A stretch of 64,000 nt of DNA from a virus. Position numbers and translations under genes: made by a program. Below, piece by piece: positions 25,348 to 49,416 of this stretch. The stretch is from the UHGV virus genome UHGV-0371537; one strand, written 5' to 3'. A model generated the notes under the pieces. The model worked only from the letters and a program-made list of their open reading frames with translations. It did no database searches and had not been told where the DNA came from. The number at the start of each line of letters is the position of its first letter. Positions within the stretch are counted from its first letter, which is position 1.

Positions 25348-25365
25348 CATATGGGGTATTTAGGC
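25348..25365 (-). promoter_or_regulatory. late-promoter-like CTAAATACCCCATATGG upstream of the acidic protein gene
   Basis: Minus-strand reading GCCTAAATACCCCATATGGCTAAC about 30 nt upstream of the ATG at 25324. Confidence 0.45.
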
Positions 25366-25826: not shown

Positions 25827-25857
25827 ATACCCCACACTGGTTGTATGGGGTATTTAG
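25827..25857 (-). promoter_or_regulatory. late-promoter-like CTAAATA plus 8-bp inverted repeat (ATACCCCA / TGGGGTAT) abutting the start codon of the PARP-like gene
   Basis: Minus-strand reading CTAAATACCCCATACAACCAGTGTGGGGTATCT-ATG. Confidence 0.5.
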
Positions 25858-37490: not shown

Positions 37491-38702
37491 ATGGCCGATT
37501 TCCTGAGTCAATATACAGGTCAGCAGATTGATGCAATACTTGGTTCTGTTGACGACAAAGTAAGTAAGAATGATGTTATCAACGATTTCGCCGTTGATGA
37601 CCCGTTGTTTCCTCCGTCAGCTCATTTGACATATGAGCTGAAGCGTTCTGTGGATAATATCTACGACATACTGGAAAACAAAGTGATCCGCACCGACGGT
37701 GGTGAACAAACTATCAACGGGCGGAAGACTTTTGCCGCAGAAATCCGAGCCAATGCTGGTGTCAGTATCCCTACGGGGAAGAAACTTACCATCACAGATG
37801 AGCCAGTTGATTCCACTGATGGCGTCAATCTGTCTATGCTGCGCAAGCACGGCGTGAGTGAAGACACTGCCGGGGTTAACTCTGGTCTGAAAATCGAGTT
37901 GTTACCTGGTGGCTACAACAAACTCACTTTCGATGGCACAAATCTGGCCACTTACTCTGGTACTGGTGTGCCAACTACCATGTTACTGGTGAGTGGAACC
38001 GACACTGTCAAGTACGACACATCTGCGTTTGTGACTTCTATCTTCAATGATACGCGTTTCAACGCTTATCTGAAGGTTGTTGATTATGATGCCGATATGT
38101 TGGATATCCAGTCTCAGTTCAACACTGTCAACACCACTCTGGCTGCGAAGGTCAACACGTCGACTTACAACTCCAAGATGTCTAGCCTGGACACCAGTAT
38201 ACTGGATCTGACGAACAACAAAGTGAACGTCAGTACGTATAACACGAAGATGGCGGCGTTGGACAGTTCCATCAGTGGCATTCAGAGTGATATCGGCACG
38301 ATCAATACCACGTTGTCTGGAAAGGTCAACACATCGACCTACAACGCCAAAATGACAAGCCTGGACGCCGACATTGCTGCCCGTGTGAAGATCGGGAAGA
38401 CCAACCCAAGCGGTATCACTGTCTCTGCTTCTGGGAACTCTGCGTTGCCCGACTTCGATTTGGTGAACCTTTGCCAGGTGTTGATCAGTGCACAATGGGG
38501 TACAGGCAACGTCGTGGATACGTACCGCGTGACGATCACCCGTGACGGGACTATCAAGTCTGAGCTGTTGGTACAGAAGTCCACTTCCGGTACGGTGACA
38601 TTCGCGGGTTCTGTAGTGTCTTCAAAACTTCGTTTGACGATAACAAATGCGAACACGACGACTGCTTGCTCCGTTGACTACAATCTAGTCGCTTCTTTCT
38701 AA
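37491..38702 (+). CDS. tail fibre protein with internal tandem repeats
   Basis: 403 aa; N-terminal tail-fibre-like segment (TDGGEQTINGRKTFAAEIRANAGVSIP); repeated KVNTSTYN-x-KM-x-SLD units. Confidence 0.6.
   Translation: MADFLSQYTGQQIDAILGSVDDKVSKNDVINDFAVDDPLFPPSAHLTYELKRSVDNIYDILENKVIRTDGGEQTINGRKTFAAEIRANAGVSIPTGKKLTITDEPVDSTDGVNLSMLRKHGVSEDTAGVNSGLKIELLPGGYNKLTFDGTNLATYSGTGVPTTMLLVSGTDTVKYDTSAFVTSIFNDTRFNAYLKVVDYDADMLDIQSQFNTVNTTLAAKVNTSTYNSKMSSLDTSILDLTNNKVNVSTYNTKMAALDSSISGIQSDIGTINTTLSGKVNTSTYNAKMTSLDADIAARVKIGKTNPSGITVSASGNSALPDFDLVNLCQVLISAQWGTGNVVDTYRVTITRDGTIKSELLVQKSTSGTVTFAGSVVSSKLRLTITNANTTTACSVDYNLVASF
38136..38361 (+). repeat. in-frame tandem repeats (about 25-aa units) inside the tail fibre gene
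   Basis: Peptide repeats AAKVNTSTYNSKMSSLDTSI / NNKVNVSTYNTKMAALDSSI / SGKVNTSTYNAKMTSLDADI. Confidence 0.5.
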
Positions 38703-38710
38703 AGTGAAAA

Positions 38711-38751
38711 CTAAATACCCCTAGATGAAACGAACACATTTAGGGGTATTT
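38711..38751 (+). promoter_or_regulatory. late-promoter-like CTAAATA followed by an 11-bp inverted repeat (AAATACCCCTA / TAGGGGTATTT) upstream of tailspike 4
   Basis: Read directly in sequence; the same module recurs upstream of other late genes. Confidence 0.5.
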
Positions 38752-38754
38752 GAA

Positions 38755-41736
38755 ATGGCTAATAAACCAACACAGCCTGTTTTCCCTCTCGGTCTGGCGG
38801 CTGAAGAGCAGTCTACTTTGGCTGGTGTCCTCAACACGGGTACGATTGAGCATGGACCAGATGCTGTCCTGACTTTACCAGAGGGTAATGCCAGCGCAGG
38901 ACTCCCGTCTTCCGTTCGCTACAATGCCGACTCCGACGAATTTGAGGGCTTCTATGAAAATGGTGGATGGTTGCCGCTGGGTGGCGGTGGTATCCGCTGG
39001 GAAGTCCTTCCGCATGCCTCTACGGCAACGCTCACTGAAGGGCGAGGCTATCTCATTAATAATACCACAGGGGCATCTACAGTGGTTCTCCCTTCCCCTA
39101 CGCGTATTGGGGATTCCGTTACTATTTGTGATGCTTATGGGAAATTTGCCACTTACCCATTGACCGTGTCTCCTTCTGGAAATAATTTGTATGGCTCCAC
39201 TGAAGACATGGCTATAACAACTGATAACGTATCAGCAACGTTCACTTGGTCTGGACCTGAACAAGGTTGGATTATTACATCCGGCGTCGGTCTTGGCCAA
39301 GGTCGTGTCTACAGTCGTGAAATCTTTACAAAAATTTTGGCGTCTGAAACAAGTTCTGTCGCTCTCAATACTCCACCAACAATTGTGGACGTGTATGCTG
39401 ACGGAAAACGTCTTGCGGAATCCAAATATTCACTAGATGGGAATGTAATCACTTTCAGTCCTTCTTTGCCAGCCAACACAGAACTTCAGGTGATTGAATA
39501 TACTCCTATTCAATTGGGTAATGTCAGTGGTTCTGGTTCTTCTACGATTACCTGGGTCTATAATGGGGGTTCAGCGATTGGTGGTGAAACCGAAATCACG
39601 TTGGACGTCGTTGTTGATGATGTTCCGGCCATTGATATAAACGGAAGTCGCCAGTATAAAAATCTGGGATTCACATTCGATCCATTAACCAGTAAAATCA
39701 CTCTTGCGCAAGAACTGGAACCAGAGGATGAAGTTGTTGTAATTATCAATGGAACACCAAACATCTATAATCAAATTGATTATACTTTGCGGGAAGTTGC
39801 TCGAGCAACCAATGTTAAAGATACAGAGGTCGTTTATTTTAGTGTTGGTGCTGCGTTAAGTGGGTATAAAGTTATTTATGACAAGGAGACGCAAAGGGCT
39901 TATCCCTTGCCTGCTGATATTGTCCCTGGTACTACTGCTGTCAGTCTTAGTTCTTCCGCTATACTTGTGCATTCTGCTGGTAGTGTTGATCTGGGCGCAT
40001 TAGCTGTATCTCGTGAAGAATATGTTACATTGTCTGGGACATTTGATTCTGGTGCTGTCATCAATGTTAAAAATGAATTACTCACCCATACTGATGGAAA
40101 GTATCGTTGGGATGGTACACTTCCTAAAACCGTTGCTCCTGGCTCAACTCTTATGACAACAGGCGGCGTTGGTGTTGGCGCATGGATTAGTGTTGGTGAT
40201 GCTTCATTGAAGTCAGAATTGGCTAAACCTACAGGAGCAGGTTTTTCAGGTTTTGATAAGTCAATTGATTACGAAACTGGTACTGTTGGCAATGCGCTTA
40301 AGAAAATTATAAATGTCAACCCGGATATGTATCCATCATTACAGGATGCGATTGATGCTGCGGCAGCTTTAACAGGTTTAGAACATGCACCAAGTAGTGC
40401 TGCTAACCATCCTGACTGGCTACAACCTAACACTGTAAGCAAAGTTATCAGGCTGAATGGGAAGAAATATCCTATCAGTACGACACTACACATTCACGGA
40501 GATGTTAGCATTGATGCTGGTTTCGGTGGGGTGTACCTCACCGATGACTTCGTTGCAGACTCCTCTGGCTATGCTGTTAAATGCGATAAAGGGACGGGTA
40601 ATCAATACGCTGGGCATATCAGCAACTTATTAATTGATGCCCGTGCAAAAACTGTTAATGGGTTTAAGATATCCGATGGCTATGCTAACAAGTTAGAAGG
40701 CATTTACGTAGCCAACGTTGATGGTCATGGCATCCATATTGCTGGCGGTATGGGTGTGCACCTATTGAAGTTTTATGCTGTTGGTGTATTAAAACCAACT
40801 AATCCGCTCAGCACAGCCCACATTGTTGAAGGTAGCGATCATCAGGTTAGCATGGGTGAAGGTCGTTATTTCCGATTTGGTACCTGGGTTCGTGGTGGTG
40901 GTAATAACAGAATTGGTAAGGTGCACAACTGGGGCATGTATGACGATACAGTCACCGACCAGAACTCAAGGATGAAATGCTGCTTTGTTGTACAGAACTC
41001 AATAAACAATTCCTTCAATCAATGTTTTGCAGATTCTCCATCAAAATGGGACTACACGAAAGCTAATTTAGATCCTGTAGATGGTTATATTAACGGCGGG
41101 ATTGGTTTTTTTATTGATGGTGGAGCCACCGGTAATACGTTCTCTCAATGCCAGACGTTTGTGAATATGAATGCGTTTAATGACGCAGGGTTATCTGCAT
41201 ATGCGGCATCACTAATGCCATTCGCCGTTGGCAGTATCAATTGCTCATTCATTGAGTGTGAAAACTCAAACTCACCAGCATGGGTGGCAAGACTGATAAC
41301 TCATATTTACTCTGTGGATCAGGCATTTACTAACATACTCGCAGCTAAGAATTTTGTTGGTATAGAGTATGATATGGTTTGCAATGGTACAATTTTCAGG
41401 AAAAATGTTGGAGTTCCTGTATTGGTAAGAAATTCAAAGTTCGAGACGCCAACAGCAAGTTATGCGCCTAACTTTTCAGACGCATCTTACATCGCAGCTA
41501 CAGTTACAGGAGATGTAACAATAACACCAGCAGTATTAACAAATACACTAATTGGTTATGTTGAGGTTCTTTTGGCTGTCTATTCAACAACATCTAAAAC
41601 AATAACATTTGGTGCAAATGTTATATTAGCAAGTAGTACCCCATCTTTGACAGCAGCTGGAACACAAGTTTTTAGGTTGTCAACAACTGATGGAGGAACG
41701 ACTTGGTTCTGTAAGTTCGAGAGTGCTTACCCGTAA
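38755..41736 (+). CDS. tailspike / tail fibre protein, paralogue 4 (extended N-terminal anchor region plus shared module plus distinct C-terminal domain)
   Basis: Contains the about 150-aa module shared by all four paralogues (VVYFSVGAALSGYKVIYDKETQRAYPLP...GKYRWDGTLPKTV...GAWISVG); Gly/Asn-rich C-terminal region; start set to the ATG after the inverted repeat (ORF track begins at 38725). Confidence 0.75.
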   Translation: MANKPTQPVFPLGLAAEEQSTLAGVLNTGTIEHGPDAVLTLPEGNASAGLPSSVRYNADSDEFEGFYENGGWLPLGGGGIRWEVLPHASTATLTEGRGYLINNTTGASTVVLPSPTRIGDSVTICDAYGKFATYPLTVSPSGNNLYGSTEDMAITTDNVSATFTWSGPEQGWIITSGVGLGQGRVYSREIFTKILASETSSVALNTPPTIVDVYADGKRLAESKYSLDGNVITFSPSLPANTELQVIEYTPIQLGNVSGSGSSTITWVYNGGSAIGGETEITLDVVVDDVPAIDINGSRQYKNLGFTFDPLTSKITLAQELEPEDEVVVIINGTPNIYNQIDYTLREVARATNVKDTEVVYFSVGAALSGYKVIYDKETQRAYPLPADIVPGTTAVSLSSSAILVHSAGSVDLGALAVSREEYVTLSGTFDSGAVINVKNELLTHTDGKYRWDGTLPKTVAPGSTLMTTGGVGVGAWISVGDASLKSELAKPTGAGFSGFDKSIDYETGTVGNALKKIINVNPDMYPSLQDAIDAAAALTGLEHAPSSAANHPDWLQPNTVSKVIRLNGKKYPISTTLHIHGDVSIDAGFGGVYLTDDFVADSSGYAVKCDKGTGNQYAGHISNLLIDARAKTVNGFKISDGYANKLEGIYVANVDGHGIHIAGGMGVHLLKFYAVGVLKPTNPLSTAHIVEGSDHQVSMGEGRYFRFGTWVRGGGNNRIGKVHNWGMYDDTVTDQNSRMKCCFVVQNSINNSFNQCFADSPSKWDYTKANLDPVDGYINGGIGFFIDGGATGNTFSQCQTFVNMNAFNDAGLSAYAASLMPFAVGSINCSFIECENSNSPAWVARLITHIYSVDQAFTNILAAKNFVGIEYDMVCNGTIFRKNVGVPVLVRNSKFETPTASYAPNFSDASYIAATVTGDVTITPAVLTNTLIGYVEVLLAVYSTTSKTITFGANVILASSTPSLTAAGTQVFRLSTTDGGTTWFCKFESAYP

Positions 41737-41798
41737 AACTAACCCCCTCTTCGGCAGGGTTCTTGTTATACCTTTGTTCATAAATTTATTAGTTCAGC

Positions 41799-41836
41799 CT
41801 AAATACCCCATATTGGTCATCCTTTATGGGGTATTA
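41799..41836 (+). promoter_or_regulatory. late-promoter-like CTAAATA plus inverted repeat (TACCCCATA / TATGGGGTA) upstream of tailspike 3
   Basis: Near-identical to the module at 44337-44373. Confidence 0.5.
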
Positions 41837-41838
41837 TC

Positions 41839-43788
41839 ATGATTTCTCAATTCAATCAACCACGCGGCTCCACTTCCATAGAAGTTAACAAACAATCTAT
41901 CGCTCGAAATTTCGGTGTCAAAGAAGACGAAGTCGTTTATTTCACTGCTGGTATTGATCTCAGTGGATTTAAAGTAATTTATAATGAGTCTACCCAACGG
42001 GCTTATTCTCTTCCTTCAGGTATTGTTTCAGGAACGACTGCTGTTAGTCTTAGTGCTAACGCTGTTCTTATGCACTCAGCTGGTTCTATAGACCTCGGAG
42101 AATTAGCCGTATCTCGTGAAGAATACGTTACATTGCCTGGGTCATTCACCTCGGGTGCTACGCTTAATGTTAAAAATGAATTGCTTACCCATACAACAGG
42201 CAAGTATCGCTGGGACGGGGAATTTCCTAAAACCGTTTCTGCAGGTTCTACCCCTGAATCTGCTGGTGGTGTTGGTCCTAGTGCGTGGGTTAGTGTTGGT
42301 GTTGCTTCTTTAAGAGCAGACCTGGAAAAACCAACAGGGGCAGGATTGATTGGATTTGGCTGTTCTCCATATATAAATAGAAATATTGGAGATGTTCTCC
42401 AGGATATACCAACGAACAAATATTTTGGTGCAAAGTGTGATGGCGTAACTGATGATACTGTAGCTAACCAAACTGCACTTGATTGGTCTGCTGACAATAA
42501 AAGAGATGTTATTTTTGTTGGAAAAAGCTGCATAACAAGCAGACTTGTACACAATTCAGGCTCCAGGGTAACACATCTTGGAGAGATCAAACCTCGTGAT
42601 TTTTCTGATGATGTTGTTATTGAGGTAAAGGACGATGCGTGGCGTGATCCTTACAATGATGGAATAACAGCAATCGATACTGGCGATAGAGTTCATATTG
42701 ATGGTCTATGTATTGCCCCTGACTCTGTAATAGATGCTGTTGGTATTCTTGGCACTGATGGAGTGGATCCGATCATATCAAGATTAAGAACATTCAACAT
42801 GAGAAGGGGAGGAATTAAGATTGTTAAGGGGTATGGATGGAACATATCAAACATTTCAATCATTGCACCTTTTGATCAAAATAACTCTCATGATTATGCA
42901 GGAATTAGGCATGAAACGTCAGATTCATTTTATTCTAGCGTTATAGTTTCAGGATATACTACTGGACTTGATATGCCTGGAAATGCTAATCAAGTATCAA
43001 AGGCCCACTGCTGGGGAATGTCATTACCAGATAGAACCACTCGTAATATGTTATTCGGCCTTAAAATGAGCGGTAGTGGTAATAACGTAGTGCAATTCTA
43101 TTCTGATTCTCCTAAAAAAATTGATAAAACACAAGCTGCAAGCATTACAAATGGTGGGATTGGCTATGTAATTTCTGGTTTTAACAACACATTTTTATCA
43201 CCTAGGAACCTATCTCATCAGGATTGTGGCTTGAAATATGGTAAGGTTTTTCTGATATCTGGTTCTGAGAATACCTTTATTAGCCCCTTAATAGGTGATT
43301 ATGACTACATTGAAGATGATGGATTTTTCACATTTACAGATTCGGCAAGCCCGCTAAACAACTATGTTTATGGTGGCAACATGCAATCTACATATTTGTA
43401 CCCAATTGCAAGTGGTAGCTATAAACCAACTGTAAACATCCCATGCACATACAGCTCTCAAATATATAACCATAATATCATTCAGAAAAATGTTATGGGA
43501 AGAGTTGTTATTACATGCAATATTACAAGTAATTCATCCGACGATCCATTCTATATACAACTGCCACCTTATCTATCAGCTGTATCTGGGATGGCAAGTG
43601 GATCAATAATTAACAACCTTACATCGTCAGTAAGAGCTGATAGCAACCTTTTTGCAGTCGAACCTTATGTTTCAAATGGTAAAATCTACTTCCGTAGATT
43701 ATTTAGATCTGGAGCTGCTGATGATATAAAGCAAAATATGCTTAACACAGGTAATGCTTTCTTTGATATATCAATAAATGCAAGATAA
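41839..43788 (+). CDS. tailspike protein, paralogue 3 (shared module at N-terminus plus distinct C-terminal domain)
   Basis: N-terminal region VVYFTAGIDLSGFKVIYNESTQRAYSLP...GKYRWDGEFPKTV homologous to the other three paralogues. Confidence 0.75.
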   Translation: MISQFNQPRGSTSIEVNKQSIARNFGVKEDEVVYFTAGIDLSGFKVIYNESTQRAYSLPSGIVSGTTAVSLSANAVLMHSAGSIDLGELAVSREEYVTLPGSFTSGATLNVKNELLTHTTGKYRWDGEFPKTVSAGSTPESAGGVGPSAWVSVGVASLRADLEKPTGAGLIGFGCSPYINRNIGDVLQDIPTNKYFGAKCDGVTDDTVANQTALDWSADNKRDVIFVGKSCITSRLVHNSGSRVTHLGEIKPRDFSDDVVIEVKDDAWRDPYNDGITAIDTGDRVHIDGLCIAPDSVIDAVGILGTDGVDPIISRLRTFNMRRGGIKIVKGYGWNISNISIIAPFDQNNSHDYAGIRHETSDSFYSSVIVSGYTTGLDMPGNANQVSKAHCWGMSLPDRTTRNMLFGLKMSGSGNNVVQFYSDSPKKIDKTQAASITNGGIGYVISGFNNTFLSPRNLSHQDCGLKYGKVFLISGSENTFISPLIGDYDYIEDDGFFTFTDSASPLNNYVYGGNMQSTYLYPIASGSYKPTVNIPCTYSSQIYNHNIIQKNVMGRVVITCNITSNSSDDPFYIQLPPYLSAVSGMASGSIINNLTSSVRADSNLFAVEPYVSNGKIYFRRLFRSGAADDIKQNMLNTGNAFFDISINAR

Positions 43789-43792
43789 ATAA

Positions 43793-43821
43793 GTAGAGCA
43801 GCAACATGATTGCTGCTCTAC
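43793..43821 (+). terminator. rho-independent terminator after tailspike 3
   Basis: GTAGAGCAGCAACATGATTGCTGCTCTAC hairpin followed by TTTCTC. Confidence 0.6.
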
Positions 43822-43849
43822 TTTCTCATACAACCTAATTGAAGTTAGT

Positions 43850-43977
43850 GGGTATATTACAGGAGGTAAAATATTCTTTAGAAGGTTATTCAGAAGCGGC
43901 TCTCCTGTTGATGTTCAGATAACAGATCTGATAACAGGTTATGCATCAATAGACTTGAGCTTTACTTGCCAGCTATA
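43850..43977 (+). pseudogene. remnant of a tailspike 3' end (second copy of the C-terminal about 40 codons)
   Basis: Translates to ...GGKIFFRRLFRSGSPVDVQITDLITGYASIDLSFTCQL*, homologous to the C-terminus of the upstream tailspike (...NGKIYFRRLFRSGAADDIKQNMLNTGNAFFDISINAR*). Confidence 0.5.
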
Positions 43978-43982
43978 AACAA

Positions 43983-44002
43983 AAACCCCGCTTCGGCGGG
44001 GT
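43983..44002 (+). terminator. terminator hairpin AACCCCGCTTCGGCGGGGTT (copy 1)
   Basis: Perfect GC-rich hairpin with TTCG loop; a second near-identical copy lies about 295 nt downstream. Confidence 0.55.
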
Positions 44003-44278
44003 TAGTTTTATCATCAGAATGGTATTGAATCACTGTTGGTAATAGTAGGCTCATTGCCTCTTGGTTGGTTTGGATGCTGTTCAGTATAACCGGTTCCAAC
44101 CAAACCAATGAGGCAGTGGGTAAGGGGGGTTTTTGTTGTACCCCAAACAATTCATTAGGTAGACTGTTTTAGTCAATTACGACTTAACTAACCTGAGAAA
44201 ATCCCTATGGGAAATGAACCAGATAACGTAACTCTAGCCAGACTCGAAGAGAGACTGAGAAACATTTTCGAAAACCAA

Positions 44279-44298
44279 AACCCCGCTTCGGCGGGGTT
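44279..44298 (+). terminator. terminator hairpin AACCCCGCTTCGGCGGGGTT (copy 2)
   Basis: Same hairpin as 43983-44002, followed by the conserved late-promoter cassette. Confidence 0.55.
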
Positions 44299-44336
44299 CT
44301 TATTATATCCATGTTCATAAATTTTATTAGTTCAGG

Positions 44337-44373
44337 CTAAATACCCCATATTGGCAAATCCTCTATGGGGTAT
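44337..44373 (+). promoter_or_regulatory. late-promoter-like CTAAATA plus inverted repeat upstream of tailspike 2
   Basis: CTAAATACCCCATATTGG-N-TATGGGGTAT, as upstream of tailspike 3. Confidence 0.5.
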
Positions 44374-44379
44374 CTTCAA

Positions 44380-47022
44380 ATGACCAGAAACGTCGAGAGC
44401 ATCTTTGGAGCGGTCGTAACAGCTCCGCACCAGATTCCATACACTTACACAGCAACGGGCGGAGAGAAGTTTATCTCCCTCCCGTTCTATCCTGTTACGG
44501 GCTTCATCACCATCAATGGGGGTGTTCAGGTTCCGACAGACAATTTCGAAATCGATGGTAACACTGTCAACCTGGGTCGAGCACTTGAGACCGGGGATGT
44601 TGTGTATTGCTTGTTTGACAAGATCCTGTCTCCAGAAGATTATGAAAACGGGATCCGCATCTACAAGTTCCAGACCGTTGGTAACGAGACCTCATTCACC
44701 CCAGACTTCACGACATATGGTGTGCAGTCTCTGTATGTTGACGGGAAGTTCCAGGTGCCGGACGTCAACTACACGTATTCCCCAACCAATGGTGTCGTTA
44801 ATTTCCTGACTGGATCTCCGGCGGCTGGTGTTTGGGTTGTTGCAGAAATGTCTGTGAAGCAGCCAAACATTTCCCCTCTCTTCGATAGAACAATTCAAGA
44901 AGTGGCCAGATCTGCGAAAGTTAAGGACTCGGATGTTGTTATCGCTGTATCCGGTGCTTCACTTTCTTCCAAGAAAGTCATCTTTGATAAAACTGCGCAA
45001 AGATGGTACTCGCTGTCAACCGGGTTGACTTCCACGGTGGTCAGTTTGGTTGATGGAATCCTCACTCACTCTTCAGGTACTGTTGATTTAGGTGCGCTGG
45101 CGGTTACTCGTGGCGAATATTTCACCATGTCTGAAACCTTCACAACCGGGTTCACAATCAGAGTGAAGAATGAGATCGTCAGCGACGGAACATATCTTTA
45201 TCGCTGGGCTGGTAGTTTGCCAAAAGTTGTTTCCGCTGGAACAACCGTGGACAACACCGGGGGTGTGAGTGCGAGTGCCTGGGTGAGATCAGATCAAAGA
45301 ACCATCAGCACCGTCAAGAGACAACTACAGCAATCCTACACGATGGCAGAATTAGTGGCCAAAACTGACATACAGTTGGGCGACTCTTTCCTTTGCTCGG
45401 ACAGGGCATATGGTGTTTATGACGTCGTTTCTTCGGTGGCTTACCCACCAAATGGTTATTCGAACGTAGTCAGCACAGTGAACTCCGGTTTGGTGTTCAG
45501 ACTGCGTGTGGTTGCTAACACAATCGATTTGGAGCAAATTGGTGGTAAGCCTCTCATCTGGGGAACCCAAGAAATCGACTGTAAACAGGCGTTGCAGGAA
45601 GCTTTCTATCTCTTGCTCGACTCCGAGAGCGCGACGGTTGATCTGAAGTCCAACAAATGGTTGCTGTCATCTTATGTGTTCAACGACGTCAAACAGCGCC
45701 GGAAAATTGTTGGTAACAACGCCATTATCTATGGGATGCCAGATGACGGTGTGACCAACTATGATTACCTGGTGAGTACTGCATGGAACTACCAAGACAT
45801 CGAAGGTGTTACGTTCGACTGTCAGTGGAACCCTCGTTATGCATGCTGTCTCCGTATCACTCATGGGTACGGACGATACGATGGCCTGACGATTCGTAAA
45901 GCTCGTTGCGCCATTCAGGTTGGTAAGAGCGAGGAAAGCCGGGTCAGCCTCAGCGAATTCATGTTCACACAACTTCGCACTGAAGAATGTGCGAAAGTCG
46001 CAATTGTTCACGGGCTTTATTCTGTGCTTAACATCAGCGATTCCATCGTGGCTTGCGGCGAGGGCGCTTTCTGGAAAACATATGACTGTACCGGGTTCAC
46101 CATCTATGGTGGTCGCGTATTCCTGATGAAATGTGGGGGCAACAGCAACGTCATCAACTTAGACAACCCTTATGTCTATTGCGCAAATACCACGGTTGCA
46201 GGCGCTCCATATATCGGTTCGTTCAACGCAGTGCAGTGCGACTTTGAATTCAGGACTCGCTTCTGCATCGTGAACGATACGACGACAGTTTATCAAGATT
46301 ACAACCAAGCAGTTGTTCTTGATTCTTGCCGAATTGGTGTATTCGCCAGCCTGGACTCTCGTGCGTTGAATTTCTTTGAAAGTAACGTCGGATACCGTGG
46401 GCAGCTCCGGATTAAGAACACAGATCTTCTGTTCGACACCACCGTGTCTCTGCCGCCGATCAAAGCTGGTGGGCATACCATCGTGGATATTGATTATGAT
46501 TCGATCTACATTCCTAACTTCAGGGGTCCAAAGATGGTCAGCTTCGCTGGTTATCCTCCGGTTCTTCCAGTCGGGATTGTGTTCCAGAACAACGTTGGGG
46601 CTGACACTCCTCTTTCTGGTAACCAGTTTGTGAACTTTTCTAACCCGATCATTGGCTTGGATTCTGATTCCTCTCTGCTTAGCAGCAACTGGAACTCGTC
46701 CACCAAGAAATTCGAATTGCCTCCTGGTGGCTTGAGTGATGTTACCGTCACTGTACGTCTGACATTGAAAGATCCTGCCACCGCCCCGGTGACAGCGTTG
46801 GTGGAATACAACAACGGCACAGCGATTGGACTTGCATTCGGGACAATCCCGGTTGGATCCAAAGATCTTTTGATCACTGGCAGGATCCGGGATCTTCGAG
46901 ATACAGCCCAGATATATTGTATCACGAGTTCTACAGCGGCGTACACCCTCAGCAATACCGGGGCATATGACTCTACTATGACAATTGAGGCCAGCATTCG
47001 GCCTCCGAAGACTAAAAGTTAA
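44380..47022 (+). CDS. tailspike protein, paralogue 2 (N-terminal extension plus shared module plus distinct C-terminal domain)
   Basis: Shared module VVIAVSGASLSSKKVIFDKTAQRWYSLS...GTYLYRWAGSLPKVV; start set to the ATG after the inverted repeat (ORF track begins at 44365). Confidence 0.75.
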   Translation: MTRNVESIFGAVVTAPHQIPYTYTATGGEKFISLPFYPVTGFITINGGVQVPTDNFEIDGNTVNLGRALETGDVVYCLFDKILSPEDYENGIRIYKFQTVGNETSFTPDFTTYGVQSLYVDGKFQVPDVNYTYSPTNGVVNFLTGSPAAGVWVVAEMSVKQPNISPLFDRTIQEVARSAKVKDSDVVIAVSGASLSSKKVIFDKTAQRWYSLSTGLTSTVVSLVDGILTHSSGTVDLGALAVTRGEYFTMSETFTTGFTIRVKNEIVSDGTYLYRWAGSLPKVVSAGTTVDNTGGVSASAWVRSDQRTISTVKRQLQQSYTMAELVAKTDIQLGDSFLCSDRAYGVYDVVSSVAYPPNGYSNVVSTVNSGLVFRLRVVANTIDLEQIGGKPLIWGTQEIDCKQALQEAFYLLLDSESATVDLKSNKWLLSSYVFNDVKQRRKIVGNNAIIYGMPDDGVTNYDYLVSTAWNYQDIEGVTFDCQWNPRYACCLRITHGYGRYDGLTIRKARCAIQVGKSEESRVSLSEFMFTQLRTEECAKVAIVHGLYSVLNISDSIVACGEGAFWKTYDCTGFTIYGGRVFLMKCGGNSNVINLDNPYVYCANTTVAGAPYIGSFNAVQCDFEFRTRFCIVNDTTTVYQDYNQAVVLDSCRIGVFASLDSRALNFFESNVGYRGQLRIKNTDLLFDTTVSLPPIKAGGHTIVDIDYDSIYIPNFRGPKMVSFAGYPPVLPVGIVFQNNVGADTPLSGNQFVNFSNPIIGLDSDSSLLSSNWNSSTKKFELPPGGLSDVTVTVRLTLKDPATAPVTALVEYNNGTAIGLAFGTIPVGSKDLLITGRIRDLRDTAQIYCITSSTAAYTLSNTGAYDSTMTIEASIRPPKTKS

Positions 47023-47079
47023 TTAACACAAGCCCTCTTCGGAGGGCTTTAACATGACTAAAACAACAGGAGATTCGTT

Positions 47080-49347
47080 ATGAATCCGCAATTTTCACAG
47101 CCGAAAGGCGCTGTCTCCAAAGAGACAAACAAAGACTCTATTGCACGCAAATTCGGTTGCAAGAAGTCTGAGGTTCTGTATGCCAAGACGGGCGCTGCCC
47201 TGACCGGTTACAAGGTGATCTATGATAAGGTCACTCAGCGCTCCTATGCTCTGCCTTCTAACCTGCCCGCTGGCGCTACCATCACCAGCTTGGCAGATGG
47301 TGTTCTTGTACATTCTGGCGGCACTGTAGACCTCGGAGCACTCGCTGTACTTCGGGAAGAGTTCGTAACTCTGGTTGAGAATTTCACTTCCGGGTTTACG
47401 ATTCGGGTCAAGAATGAAGTCGTGAGTGATGGAACGTACCTGTATCGTTGGGGTGGTTCGTTACCAAAGACCGTCAATGCTTCATCAACTGTTGCTGGGA
47501 CGGGTGGGATTTCTCCTAGTGCTTGGGTGGGCGTGGGAAACACTTCATTTTTGGGTGTTGACGGCGCAACATTAGTGGGGTATCAAAACCCTCGTTCAAC
47601 TGTGAACGAAACAATAAAATCCGCTCTTGATAAAATAAACATGAAAGTTATCTTTGCGGCGGATTGGGGTGTTAAAACTGATTCGTCTGATAACCAGGAT
47701 TCTTTGTGGTCCTTGGGTCAATATCTCTCTGCGTCTACGGAACCGCTGTACGTTGTATTTCCTAGGGGGATAAGTTTGGTCGGGTCACAGCAGTTTGCCG
47801 GGGCGTCTTCGCAAGGATATTCTTATCGACCCAACTATTTACGCCGCTCATGGGCGGACTTGTCCGCCGCTGGTTGGTTTTCCATCAGTGAGACTAATCA
47901 AAAGATCGTCTTAGACATGACCGGGTGGACTTTAAAACTGAACTCTGGATTCAAGCTCGGTTCATTTGATCCGATAACCGGAAATCCCGCACCCGATTCT
48001 CCATCAGAAGATTTAAATTTTATGGCGTCTTCTGGGTATATGATTAAGCTGTATCTCGCACCAAATGTGGAAATTTTGAATGGAACCACTGATGGTAACT
48101 TAACAGGTGCTATTTGGGGTGGTACTTATGGTCCAGCAGGGTATCAAGTCCCAGCATACAATATGTGGATTAATCAATCTGAAGGCGTTTACATATCTCG
48201 GCATACTTTTAAAAACTCTGCCGTTGACGGATTGTATCTTCAAGCCACAGGGAATAGAAATTTCCTAGACATTATCCCCAAAACCATTATCGACAACTGC
48301 ATCATAACAGACTGCGGTCGTAATTGTTATTCTCTCACTGGGGCTGCAAATGTTGAGATGAGAAACATCATTATAACCCGATCGGGTTCAAAGGCCAATG
48401 GCATTTCTACGCACGCAAGTGATCCGCAAGCAGGGGTGGACATTGAAGCGGAAGGTGGCAACCCATATAACATAACCTTCATTAATCCTAAGATCGTTGA
48501 TTGTGCTAAGAACGCTCTTATGACCGTGTCGGTGCCAGGAACTGTCAACGATGTGACTGTAGATGGAGGGGTTATTCACAGTTATTCAGAATTGGGCGCT
48601 GTGTTTAATTCAGGAAACTCTCGTAACATTAAATTCAAAAACGCCACTATAATTGGTGGGGTAATTGATTCTAAAAGCCCTGCAGAAATGGGTTTGGAAT
48701 GTTATTCATTCGAAAACTGCACGTTTGCAAACAGATATGGTAACACCTATGCAATGAATTATCTACTTTCTTTCCGAGTTAGTAAATTTGTTGGTAATAC
48801 CATTGATTTTAATATCCCCACCACTGGGGTAACAGCTCCGACCATCGTTATCAATGATCAAGATGGGGTTGCTAACGGTTACTCGTTAGAACGCTGTAAA
48901 CAGAATCGTATTATCCTGACCGGAAATGCTGCTAATATCACCTATGCCAACGGATTGGGGGGATTTAACTTTTTCCGCAATGCTGAAGTGTTTGTTGAAG
49001 CAGGGGGCATGACGGGAACAACGAAGATGTTGGTAGACACATGTTCTGCAGCGCCTGGAGGCATGCTTACAAATTCTGCTAACTTCAACTTTGGTGTCAC
49101 CATGACTAAAGATACAAGTCGGAATTTATGGTATGCTGCTAAACAATCTTATGTGGGTAGCGTACTGACAGCGGCTCCCACGGCGGCAGGCTCCCAGAAT
49201 GGAAGCCTGGATTTAGGGAGCGTGAATGGAAGATTTCGGACTGGATATTTCGATTCTGGGGTGATTGTCAGGGACGGAGTAACTGGTACGCATTATAGAG
49301 TGCGAGTTACCAGCGGTTCTCTGAATATTGTGGCGGATGAAAATTAA
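47080..49347 (+). CDS. tailspike protein, paralogue 1 (shared module at N-terminus plus beta-helix-like C-terminal domain)
   Basis: Shared module VLYAKTGAALTGYKVIYDKVTQRSYALP...GTYLYRWGGSLPKTV; Asn/Gly/Thr-rich C-terminal region. Confidence 0.75.
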   Translation: MNPQFSQPKGAVSKETNKDSIARKFGCKKSEVLYAKTGAALTGYKVIYDKVTQRSYALPSNLPAGATITSLADGVLVHSGGTVDLGALAVLREEFVTLVENFTSGFTIRVKNEVVSDGTYLYRWGGSLPKTVNASSTVAGTGGISPSAWVGVGNTSFLGVDGATLVGYQNPRSTVNETIKSALDKINMKVIFAADWGVKTDSSDNQDSLWSLGQYLSASTEPLYVVFPRGISLVGSQQFAGASSQGYSYRPNYLRRSWADLSAAGWFSISETNQKIVLDMTGWTLKLNSGFKLGSFDPITGNPAPDSPSEDLNFMASSGYMIKLYLAPNVEILNGTTDGNLTGAIWGGTYGPAGYQVPAYNMWINQSEGVYISRHTFKNSAVDGLYLQATGNRNFLDIIPKTIIDNCIITDCGRNCYSLTGAANVEMRNIIITRSGSKANGISTHASDPQAGVDIEAEGGNPYNITFINPKIVDCAKNALMTVSVPGTVNDVTVDGGVIHSYSELGAVFNSGNSRNIKFKNATIIGGVIDSKSPAEMGLECYSFENCTFANRYGNTYAMNYLLSFRVSKFVGNTIDFNIPTTGVTAPTIVINDQDGVANGYSLERCKQNRIILTGNAANITYANGLGGFNFFRNAEVFVEAGGMTGTTKMLVDTCSAAPGGMLTNSANFNFGVTMTKDTSRNLWYAAKQSYVGSVLTAAPTAAGSQNGSLDLGSVNGRFRTGYFDSGVIVRDGVTGTHYRVRVTSGSLNIVADEN

Positions 49348-49393: not shown

Positions 49394-49416
49394 AAGCCCC
49401 TGAGTATGAGGGGCTT
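49394..49416 (+). terminator. rho-independent terminator after tailspike 1
   Basis: AAGCCCCTGAGTATGAGGGGCTT hairpin followed by ATTTCTTTC. Confidence 0.6.

Follow-up and report, generated by a model that had tools for sequence, protein, structure and literature searches.

A branched complex of four tailspike proteins (TSP1-4) is reportedly known from the Kuttervirus CBA120, the work being ascribed to Plattner et al. 2019 and the structures to PDB entries 4oj5, 6w4q, 6nw9, 5w6h and 7rej. Tandem domains TD1-TD2 are common to the TSPs, the XD domains of TSP2 and TSP4 hinge the complex, TSP4 anchors it on the baseplate, and the C-terminal domains differ, each being O-antigen specific (PMC8432352, PMC10791037). 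The TSP2 of CBA120 possesses TD1 only and no TD2 (PMC8432352). In phage AV101, TSP1-4 recognise Escherichia coli O8, O82, O153 and O159, and the degradation of O153 by its TSP3 was shown experimentally (PMC10791037). Swaps between tsp2 and tsp1 were also reported among isolates (PMC10791037), and TD was proposed as a recombination site (PMC8432352, PMC10791037, PMC10408124). Receptor-binding protein genes of lytic coliphages carry motifs one and two at the anchor end, while motif three is a terminator of ~20 nt downstream, proposed as a downstream recombination site (PMC10408124). Here, the tailspike locus in a 64,000-nucleotide stretch of UHGV virus genome UHGV-0371537, referred to as the window, was compared with these systems.

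Four long neighbouring open reading frames (ORFs) on the + strand, at ~38.7-49.3 kb of the window, were assigned with high confidence to the tsp4-tsp3-tsp2-tsp1 cluster of an Agtrevirus (Ackermannviridae) phage, encoding the four subunits of a branched tailspike complex. Membership in the genus is given by nucleotide similarity of window positions 1-25000, a 25-kb sample of the genome, which showed 92% nucleotide identity over 95% of the sample to Agtrevirus P46FS4 and ChubbyThor and 90% identity to AV101; SKML-39 and MK-13 were also within 90-92%. On this Ackermannviridae backbone, the four adjacent genes are flanked by the baseplate wedge genes on one side and by vriC on the other, as in CBA120. 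The complete order (baseplate wedge, PHROG 3838 protein, tsp4, tsp3, tsp2, tsp1, vriC) is the same in AV101, vB_CECAV_050, YX22 and ChubbyThor. The 1612-aa protein downstream of the cluster was identified as VriC by its DUF4815 match in Pfam and by alignment to an annotated VriC gene. A preliminary description of this DNA had already recognised a branched multi-tailspike apparatus as in CBA120, and the synteny, the anchor and XD homology and the presence of TD1-TD2 in all four proteins bear it out. As exactly such a system is described in the literature (PMC10791037, PMC8432352, PMC10408124), that interpretation is correct and the architecture itself is already known. Coverage of the locus by any single phage record does not exceed 41%; the combination of four receptor-binding domains is therefore new and is not on record in any phage.

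The locus adds one unsampled combination of receptor-binding domains, one of them belonging to a rare family for which a confident structural model is now available. It also holds an unusually clear natural record of domain swapping, with junctions inside the module, a remnant of a replaced allele and hitchhiking podovirus DNA. These points are specific to the window and illustrate mechanisms proposed before; the current picture of the system is unchanged and the interest of the locus is local.

Common adaptor module and N-terminal anchors

The four products had been given as 1003, 649, 885 and 755 aa. The ORFs are present on the + strand, and two start codons were corrected. Translation from 38755, the start named for the first product, yields 993 aa, and a length of 1003 aa fits the ATG at 38725, further upstream. 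In the alignment, residue 1 of the solved N-terminus of CBA120 TSP4 falls on the 38755 start. On the basis of alignment to residue 1 of the solved chains, 38755 was taken as the start of tsp4, while tsp2 probably starts at 44380 and encodes 880 aa, as suggested by its alignment with 6w4q.

A homologous segment of about 150 aa, N-terminal in two of the proteins and preceded by extensions in the other two, had been noticed earlier and was recovered here. Four-way alignment placed the block of ~145 aa at residues 335-479 in TSP4 (993-aa numbering), 8-152 in TSP3, 167-308 in TSP2 and 8-151 in TSP1. Pairwise identity in the block is 46-64% over 142-145 aa, and forced alignment elsewhere gives 15-25%. 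Pfam PF18668 (Tail_spike_N) was detected above the curated cut-off in all four proteins, with E values from 2.8e-15 to 9.2e-24 (TSP4 residues 417-482; TSP3 at E 9e-24). The block aligns with the N-terminal domains of CBA120 TSP1 (4oj5), TSP3 (6nw9/5w6f) and TSP4 (5w6h) with E values from 1e-27 to 1e-83. TSP3 residues 1-214 match CBA120 TSP3 (6nw9/5w6f, E 8e-83), and TSP1 residues 1-179 match CBA120 TSP1 (4oj5) and G7C gp63.1 (4qnl) with E 1e-43 to 5e-46. The curated Pfam matches and the alignment to solved structures rule out low-complexity similarity as an alternative. The shared module is what was published as the tandem domain TD1-TD2, and it stands ahead of the receptor-binding domain in each of the four proteins, TSP2 with TD2 being a minority form. 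Tail_spike_N was not detected by Pfam in the TSP4 and TSP3 of ChubbyThor (L010/L011) or of L004, an Agtrevirus-like metagenomic contig, and presence of the module in all four proteins is hence not universal within Agtrevirus. The C-terminal regions had been called unrelated to each other, which is essentially so; the sole detectable similarity among them is a local match of 75 aa between TSP4 and TSP3 (33% identity, E 3e-7).

The two N-terminal extensions, judged by their alignments, are the published anchor and XD domains. Residues 1-338 of TSP4 align end to end with the N-terminal fragments of CBA120 TSP4 (7rej/7rfo) at E 3e-195 and comprise the baseplate anchor and the gp10-like XD1-XD3. 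In TSP2, the stretch of residues 6-246 aligns with residues 1-243 in full-length CBA120 TSP2 (6w4q) at E 3e-93, and gp10-like XD domains are likewise present. By homology to the CBA120 model, the first ~80 residues of TSP4, together with its XD1, would fix it to the baseplate, TSP4 and TSP2 would be joined by mutual binding of their XD2 domains, and the XD3 regions of these two proteins would be the docking sites for TD1 of TSP1 and of TSP3. By analogy with the described complexes, four trimers would form one branched baseplate complex, in which each C-terminal domain may act as a separate module binding and depolymerising an O- or K-antigen, giving four receptor specificities per virion; enzymatic activity and receptor identity are likewise inferred.

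CBA120 belongs to another genus (the window is Agtrevirus, GC ~50%), and, by sequence, no CBA120 domain is matched by any of the four receptor-binding domains. AV101 resembles the window in its genus-level backbone (90% nucleotide identity), gene order, flanking genes and anchor, XD and TD modules, in a TSP3 receptor-binding domain of the same family and in a G7C-derived flank fragment. However, three of the four receptor-binding domains are unrelated, TSP2 of the window has TD2, and its G7C-derived fragment is situated between tsp3 and tsp2, beside an AV101-type tsp3 remnant. The Gamaleyavirus G7C gp63.1 (4qnl) has the same TD1-TD2 adaptor (E 5e-46 to TSP1) and the same terminator hairpin after its gene, and, for the receptor-binding domains in TSP1, TSP2 and TSP4, relatives exist in G7C-like phages or on contigs of G7C size. 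G7C is, however, a podovirus with two tailspikes (gp63.1/gp66), not four; the catalytic part of gp63.1 is an esterase, not a beta-helix depolymerase, and the window holds only a non-functional fragment of the DNA downstream of gp63.1.

Receptor-binding domains and the chimeric TSP2

TSP4's receptor-binding domain shows a protein identity of 99.8% to vB_CECAV_050 and 96-98% to YX22 (98%), vB_SalM-ps4 and BME3. More distant relatives (57-95% identity) were found in G7C-size contigs, in P22-type Head_binding tailspikes of E. coli prophages, and in Enterobacter and Proteus. Members of the family are joined to N-termini of the Tail_spike_N, P22 Head_binding and T7-tail types. Its family profile matches only the N-terminal adaptors of PDB chains. 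The TSP3 domain is 54% identical to that of AV101 TSP3, and the TSP1 domain shares 57% identity with vB_Hercules_SET and 54% with tailspikes from the G7C-like phages E20 and F22, along with a match to Pfam PF13229 (Beta_helix) exactly at the cut-off. A phmmer search against PDB with E up to 10 gave nothing for the TSP4, TSP3 and TSP1 domains. Among PHROGs, no family was found for three of the four receptor-binding domains, and TSP3 was matched over its first ~70 residues only. GC content is 0.39-0.41 across window positions 40001-44000 versus ~0.50 elsewhere; the dip coincides with the receptor-binding domains of TSP4 and TSP3 and is consistent with a foreign origin.

TSP2 is a chimera, in which native XD1-XD2-TD1 is joined to the TD2 and receptor-binding domain of a TSP1-type gene. 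The XD part of tsp2 shows 83% nucleotide identity to other TSP2 genes. Beyond a junction at ~nt 45138 (residue ~258, the start of TD2), the gene shows 91% nucleotide identity to tsp1 of contig L004. At the protein level, 30-codon windows from residue ~265 onward, a point inside TD2, are 93-100% identical to the TSP1 of L004, the figure for the receptor-binding domain being 99%. Comparison of window positions 45168-47019 with L004 10333-12184 revealed that 152 of the 618 codons differ, 144 by synonymous and 8 by non-synonymous changes. This ratio indicates long and strong purifying selection on the TSP2 domain, moved between tsp positions, in the time after the two copies separated, and the age of the junction is accordingly considerable; it is not a recent accident. 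The possession of both TD1 and TD2 distinguishes this TSP2 from that of CBA120. The TD2-bearing TSP2 was also considered as a new variant, which was dropped given that at least 80% of the N-terminal 315 aa is found in each of 38 phage records (Gloob, for example, through residue 309).

The family of the TSP2 receptor-binding domain is very small: 5.8 billion proteins contain 8 clusters of it, and a set of 1.84 billion yields 13 representatives. No match to the domain was found in 50,697 phage records, nor, at the sensitivity of blastn, to its DNA in 5,426 complete E. coli genomes. It is carried on four different phage chassis, namely an Ackermannviridae TSP1, a T7-like contig of 43.6 kb, a podovirus-like contig of 58.5 kb, where it follows Calx-beta domains, and an N4-like contig of 74 kb. 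One distant member has a P22 head-binding N-terminus, and five distant members match the pectate-lyase-like PF12708. A first AlphaFold model, built with 9 close homologues, had a pLDDT of 52 and Foldseek matches of TM ~0.3 and was set aside. With distant relatives from an exhaustive search added, the model reached a pLDDT of 91, and the domain is confidently predicted to have a beta-helix depolymerase fold, with which Foldseek agrees. In the model, the C-terminal ~140 residues (window 46700-47019, residues ~780-885) form a C1q/TNF-like jelly roll after the beta-helix, with a Foldseek target TM of ~0.7 to C1q globular heads. It is a long shot, though conceivable, that the domain could target a rare or untyped enterobacterial glycan with an undescribed cleavage specificity, and that its placement on a TD2-bearing TSP2 could alter the geometry or stoichiometry of the complex.

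Cassette exchange and alternative readings

Cassette exchange at the shared module is directly recorded in the DNA. Apart from the junction in tsp2, a tract of 95% nucleotide identity shared with vB_CECAV_050 and YX22 begins upstream of tsp4, takes in all of tsp4 and the module of tsp3, and ends at 42315-42319, at the end of TD2. The tsp3-tsp2 spacer of 576 nt (43789-44364) contains two remnants. One is a piece of 160 nt from an older AV101-type tsp3, starting 43 nt past the stop codon of the present tsp3, which appears to be the leftover of a receptor-binding domain replacement. The other derives from a G7C-like podovirus and consists of a UUCG-loop terminator hairpin, a spacer and the opening 24 codons from an N4 gp63-like gene (MGNEPDNVTLARLEERLRNIFENQ), breaking off at a second copy of the terminator. 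It is 85% identical to phi G17 and 93% identical to G7C, the figure being 97% for the AV101 sequence downstream of tsp1, where AV101 carries the same fragment (L001 12864-13095); A221, PC3 and PH4 match too. Its occurrence both in the window and downstream of AV101 tsp1 points to a tailspike cassette having reached the Agtrevirus lineage, along with its 3' flank, by transfer from a G7C-like podovirus, the domain being replaced later.

In the proposed mechanism, the TD1-TD2 module would have two roles, as structural adaptor and as left-hand homology arm for recombination, while the conserved terminator hairpin after each gene would provide the right-hand arm, so that both arms bracket the receptor-binding domain as an exchangeable cassette. 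On this reading, such cassettes are exchanged from one tsp position to another, among Ackermannviridae phages and, in both directions, with G7C-like, T7-like and P22-like phages. The TSP2 junction lies in the anchor-end (TD2) region of motifs one and two, and the hairpins fit motif three by description (PMC10408124); Agtrevirus clusters were not analysed in depth in that study. The downstream hairpin was considered as a new recombination arm, and this was dropped because it is described already as motif three (PMC10408124).

Some points weigh against the reading of the locus as four depolymerising subunits of one complex. For TSP4, the receptor-binding domain is without a match in Pfam, PHROG or PDB, and profile-profile comparison with the TSP2 family was equally negative, hhalign giving a probability of 0.6% and thus no relation. 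The expectation of beta-helix depolymerase folds in the C-terminal regions, voiced in the preliminary description, agrees with the confident model for TSP2; for TSP1 and TSP3 it is supported indirectly, by the PF13229 match and by the identity to AV101 TSP3, respectively. TD2 is absent by Pfam from the TSP2 of AV101, vB_CECAV_050, YX22, L004 and ChubbyThor, and the fit of a TD2-bearing TSP2 into the complex is assumed. At least one of the four C-terminal domains may be something other than a glycan depolymerase: it might bind without enzymatic activity, or belong to a different enzyme class, as does the O-antigen deacetylase of G7C gp63.1. The TSP4 domain, without a family or fold detectable by any sequence method used, would allow this, as would the esterase of gp63.1, which sits on the same TD1-TD2 adaptor (cited in PMC10408124; 4qnl). 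We consider it unlikely, since the predicted fold of the TSP2 domain, the Beta_helix match of TSP1 and the 54% identity of TSP3 to an experimentally active tailspike (PMC10791037) argue for depolymerases, and TSP4 shares a conserved core segment with TSP3 and has P22-like prophage tailspikes as relatives.

It could further be supposed that the chimeric TSP2 is a recent recombinant which neither assembles nor functions, the phage working with three tailspikes. The absence of TD2 from the five other TSP2s and from that of CBA120 (PMC8432352) would favor this, but the ORF is intact, the codon comparison with the L004 relative reveals strong purifying selection, the 38 records share the N-terminal part, and tsp2/tsp1 swaps are known among isolates (PMC10791037); a non-functional TSP2 is thus very improbable. 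Local tandem duplication, with the four genes diverging in place, the module being their slowly evolving part and the C-termini fast-diverging rather than imported, would explain why the genes are adjacent with one homologous module in common, and why weak local C-terminal similarity is kept between TSP4 and TSP3. Against it, each receptor-binding domain is closer to relatives on other phage chassis than to any within the cluster, the DNA identity breaks sharply at the module, GC drops over two of the domains, and the spacer holds remnants of replaced cassettes, podovirus DNA included. Divergence in place is therefore largely refuted and hardly credible, and exchange of receptor-binding domains on a common adaptor is the reading kept here.

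Feature positions and expression signals

Positions of the tailspike genes, terminators, upstream motifs and spacer remnants in the window
Feature	Position	Strand	Description
tsp4	38755-41736	+	993 aa; anchor + XD1-XD3 ~38755-39768; TD1-TD2 39757-40191; receptor-binding domain 40282-41733
tsp3	41839-43788	+	649 aa; TD1-TD2 41860-42294; receptor-binding domain 42361-43785
tsp2	44365-47022	+	ORF 885 aa, probable start 44380 giving 880 aa; XD1-XD2 ~44380-44862; TD1-TD2 44863-45288; receptor-binding domain 45322-47019
tsp1	47080-49347	+	755 aa; TD1-TD2 47101-47532; receptor-binding domain 47557-49344
GC-rich UUCG-loop hairpin after tsp2	47030-47049	.	corresponds by description to motif three (PMC10408124)
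Related hairpins after other genes	41741-41765, 43984-44003, 44279-44298, 49394-49416		
CTAAATACCCC motif upstream of tsp4	38711-38721	+	identical copies at 41799-41809 (tsp3) and 44337-44347 (tsp2)
CTAAATACCCC-GGGGTAT regions	38711-38754, 41799-41838, 44337-44379		
Remnant of older AV101-type tsp3 3' end	43831-43990	+	last ~47 codons + stop; 91.9% nucleotide identity to AV101 tsp3 (L001 7637-7796)
G7C-like podovirus fragment	43984-44283	+	collinear with DNA just downstream of tailspike gp63.1

For the Agtrevirus-related Ackermannviridae phage EspM4VN, CTAAATACCCC is given in a list as a regulatory motif (PMC7283392). The window has five exact copies of it against 0.46 expected, the two outside the cluster being at 25353-25363 and 25847-25857 (- strand). 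Within the cluster it is situated 34-44 nt upstream of the starts of tsp4, tsp3 and tsp2, and a complementary GGGGTAT then occurs just before the ATG; the two could form a hairpin which includes the Shine-Dalgarno-like GGGG. The tsp1 gene is without CTAAATACCCC and has an AGGAG ribosome-binding site, directly after the tsp2 terminator.

Upstream of tsp4, the PHROG 3838 protein of 403 aa (window 37491-38702) is variously annotated as tail fiber or baseplate connector. It possesses an internal direct repeat, 38106-38195 versus 38280-38369, with 74% nucleotide identity, which encodes heptad-like repeats of the NTSTYN.KM.SLD type.

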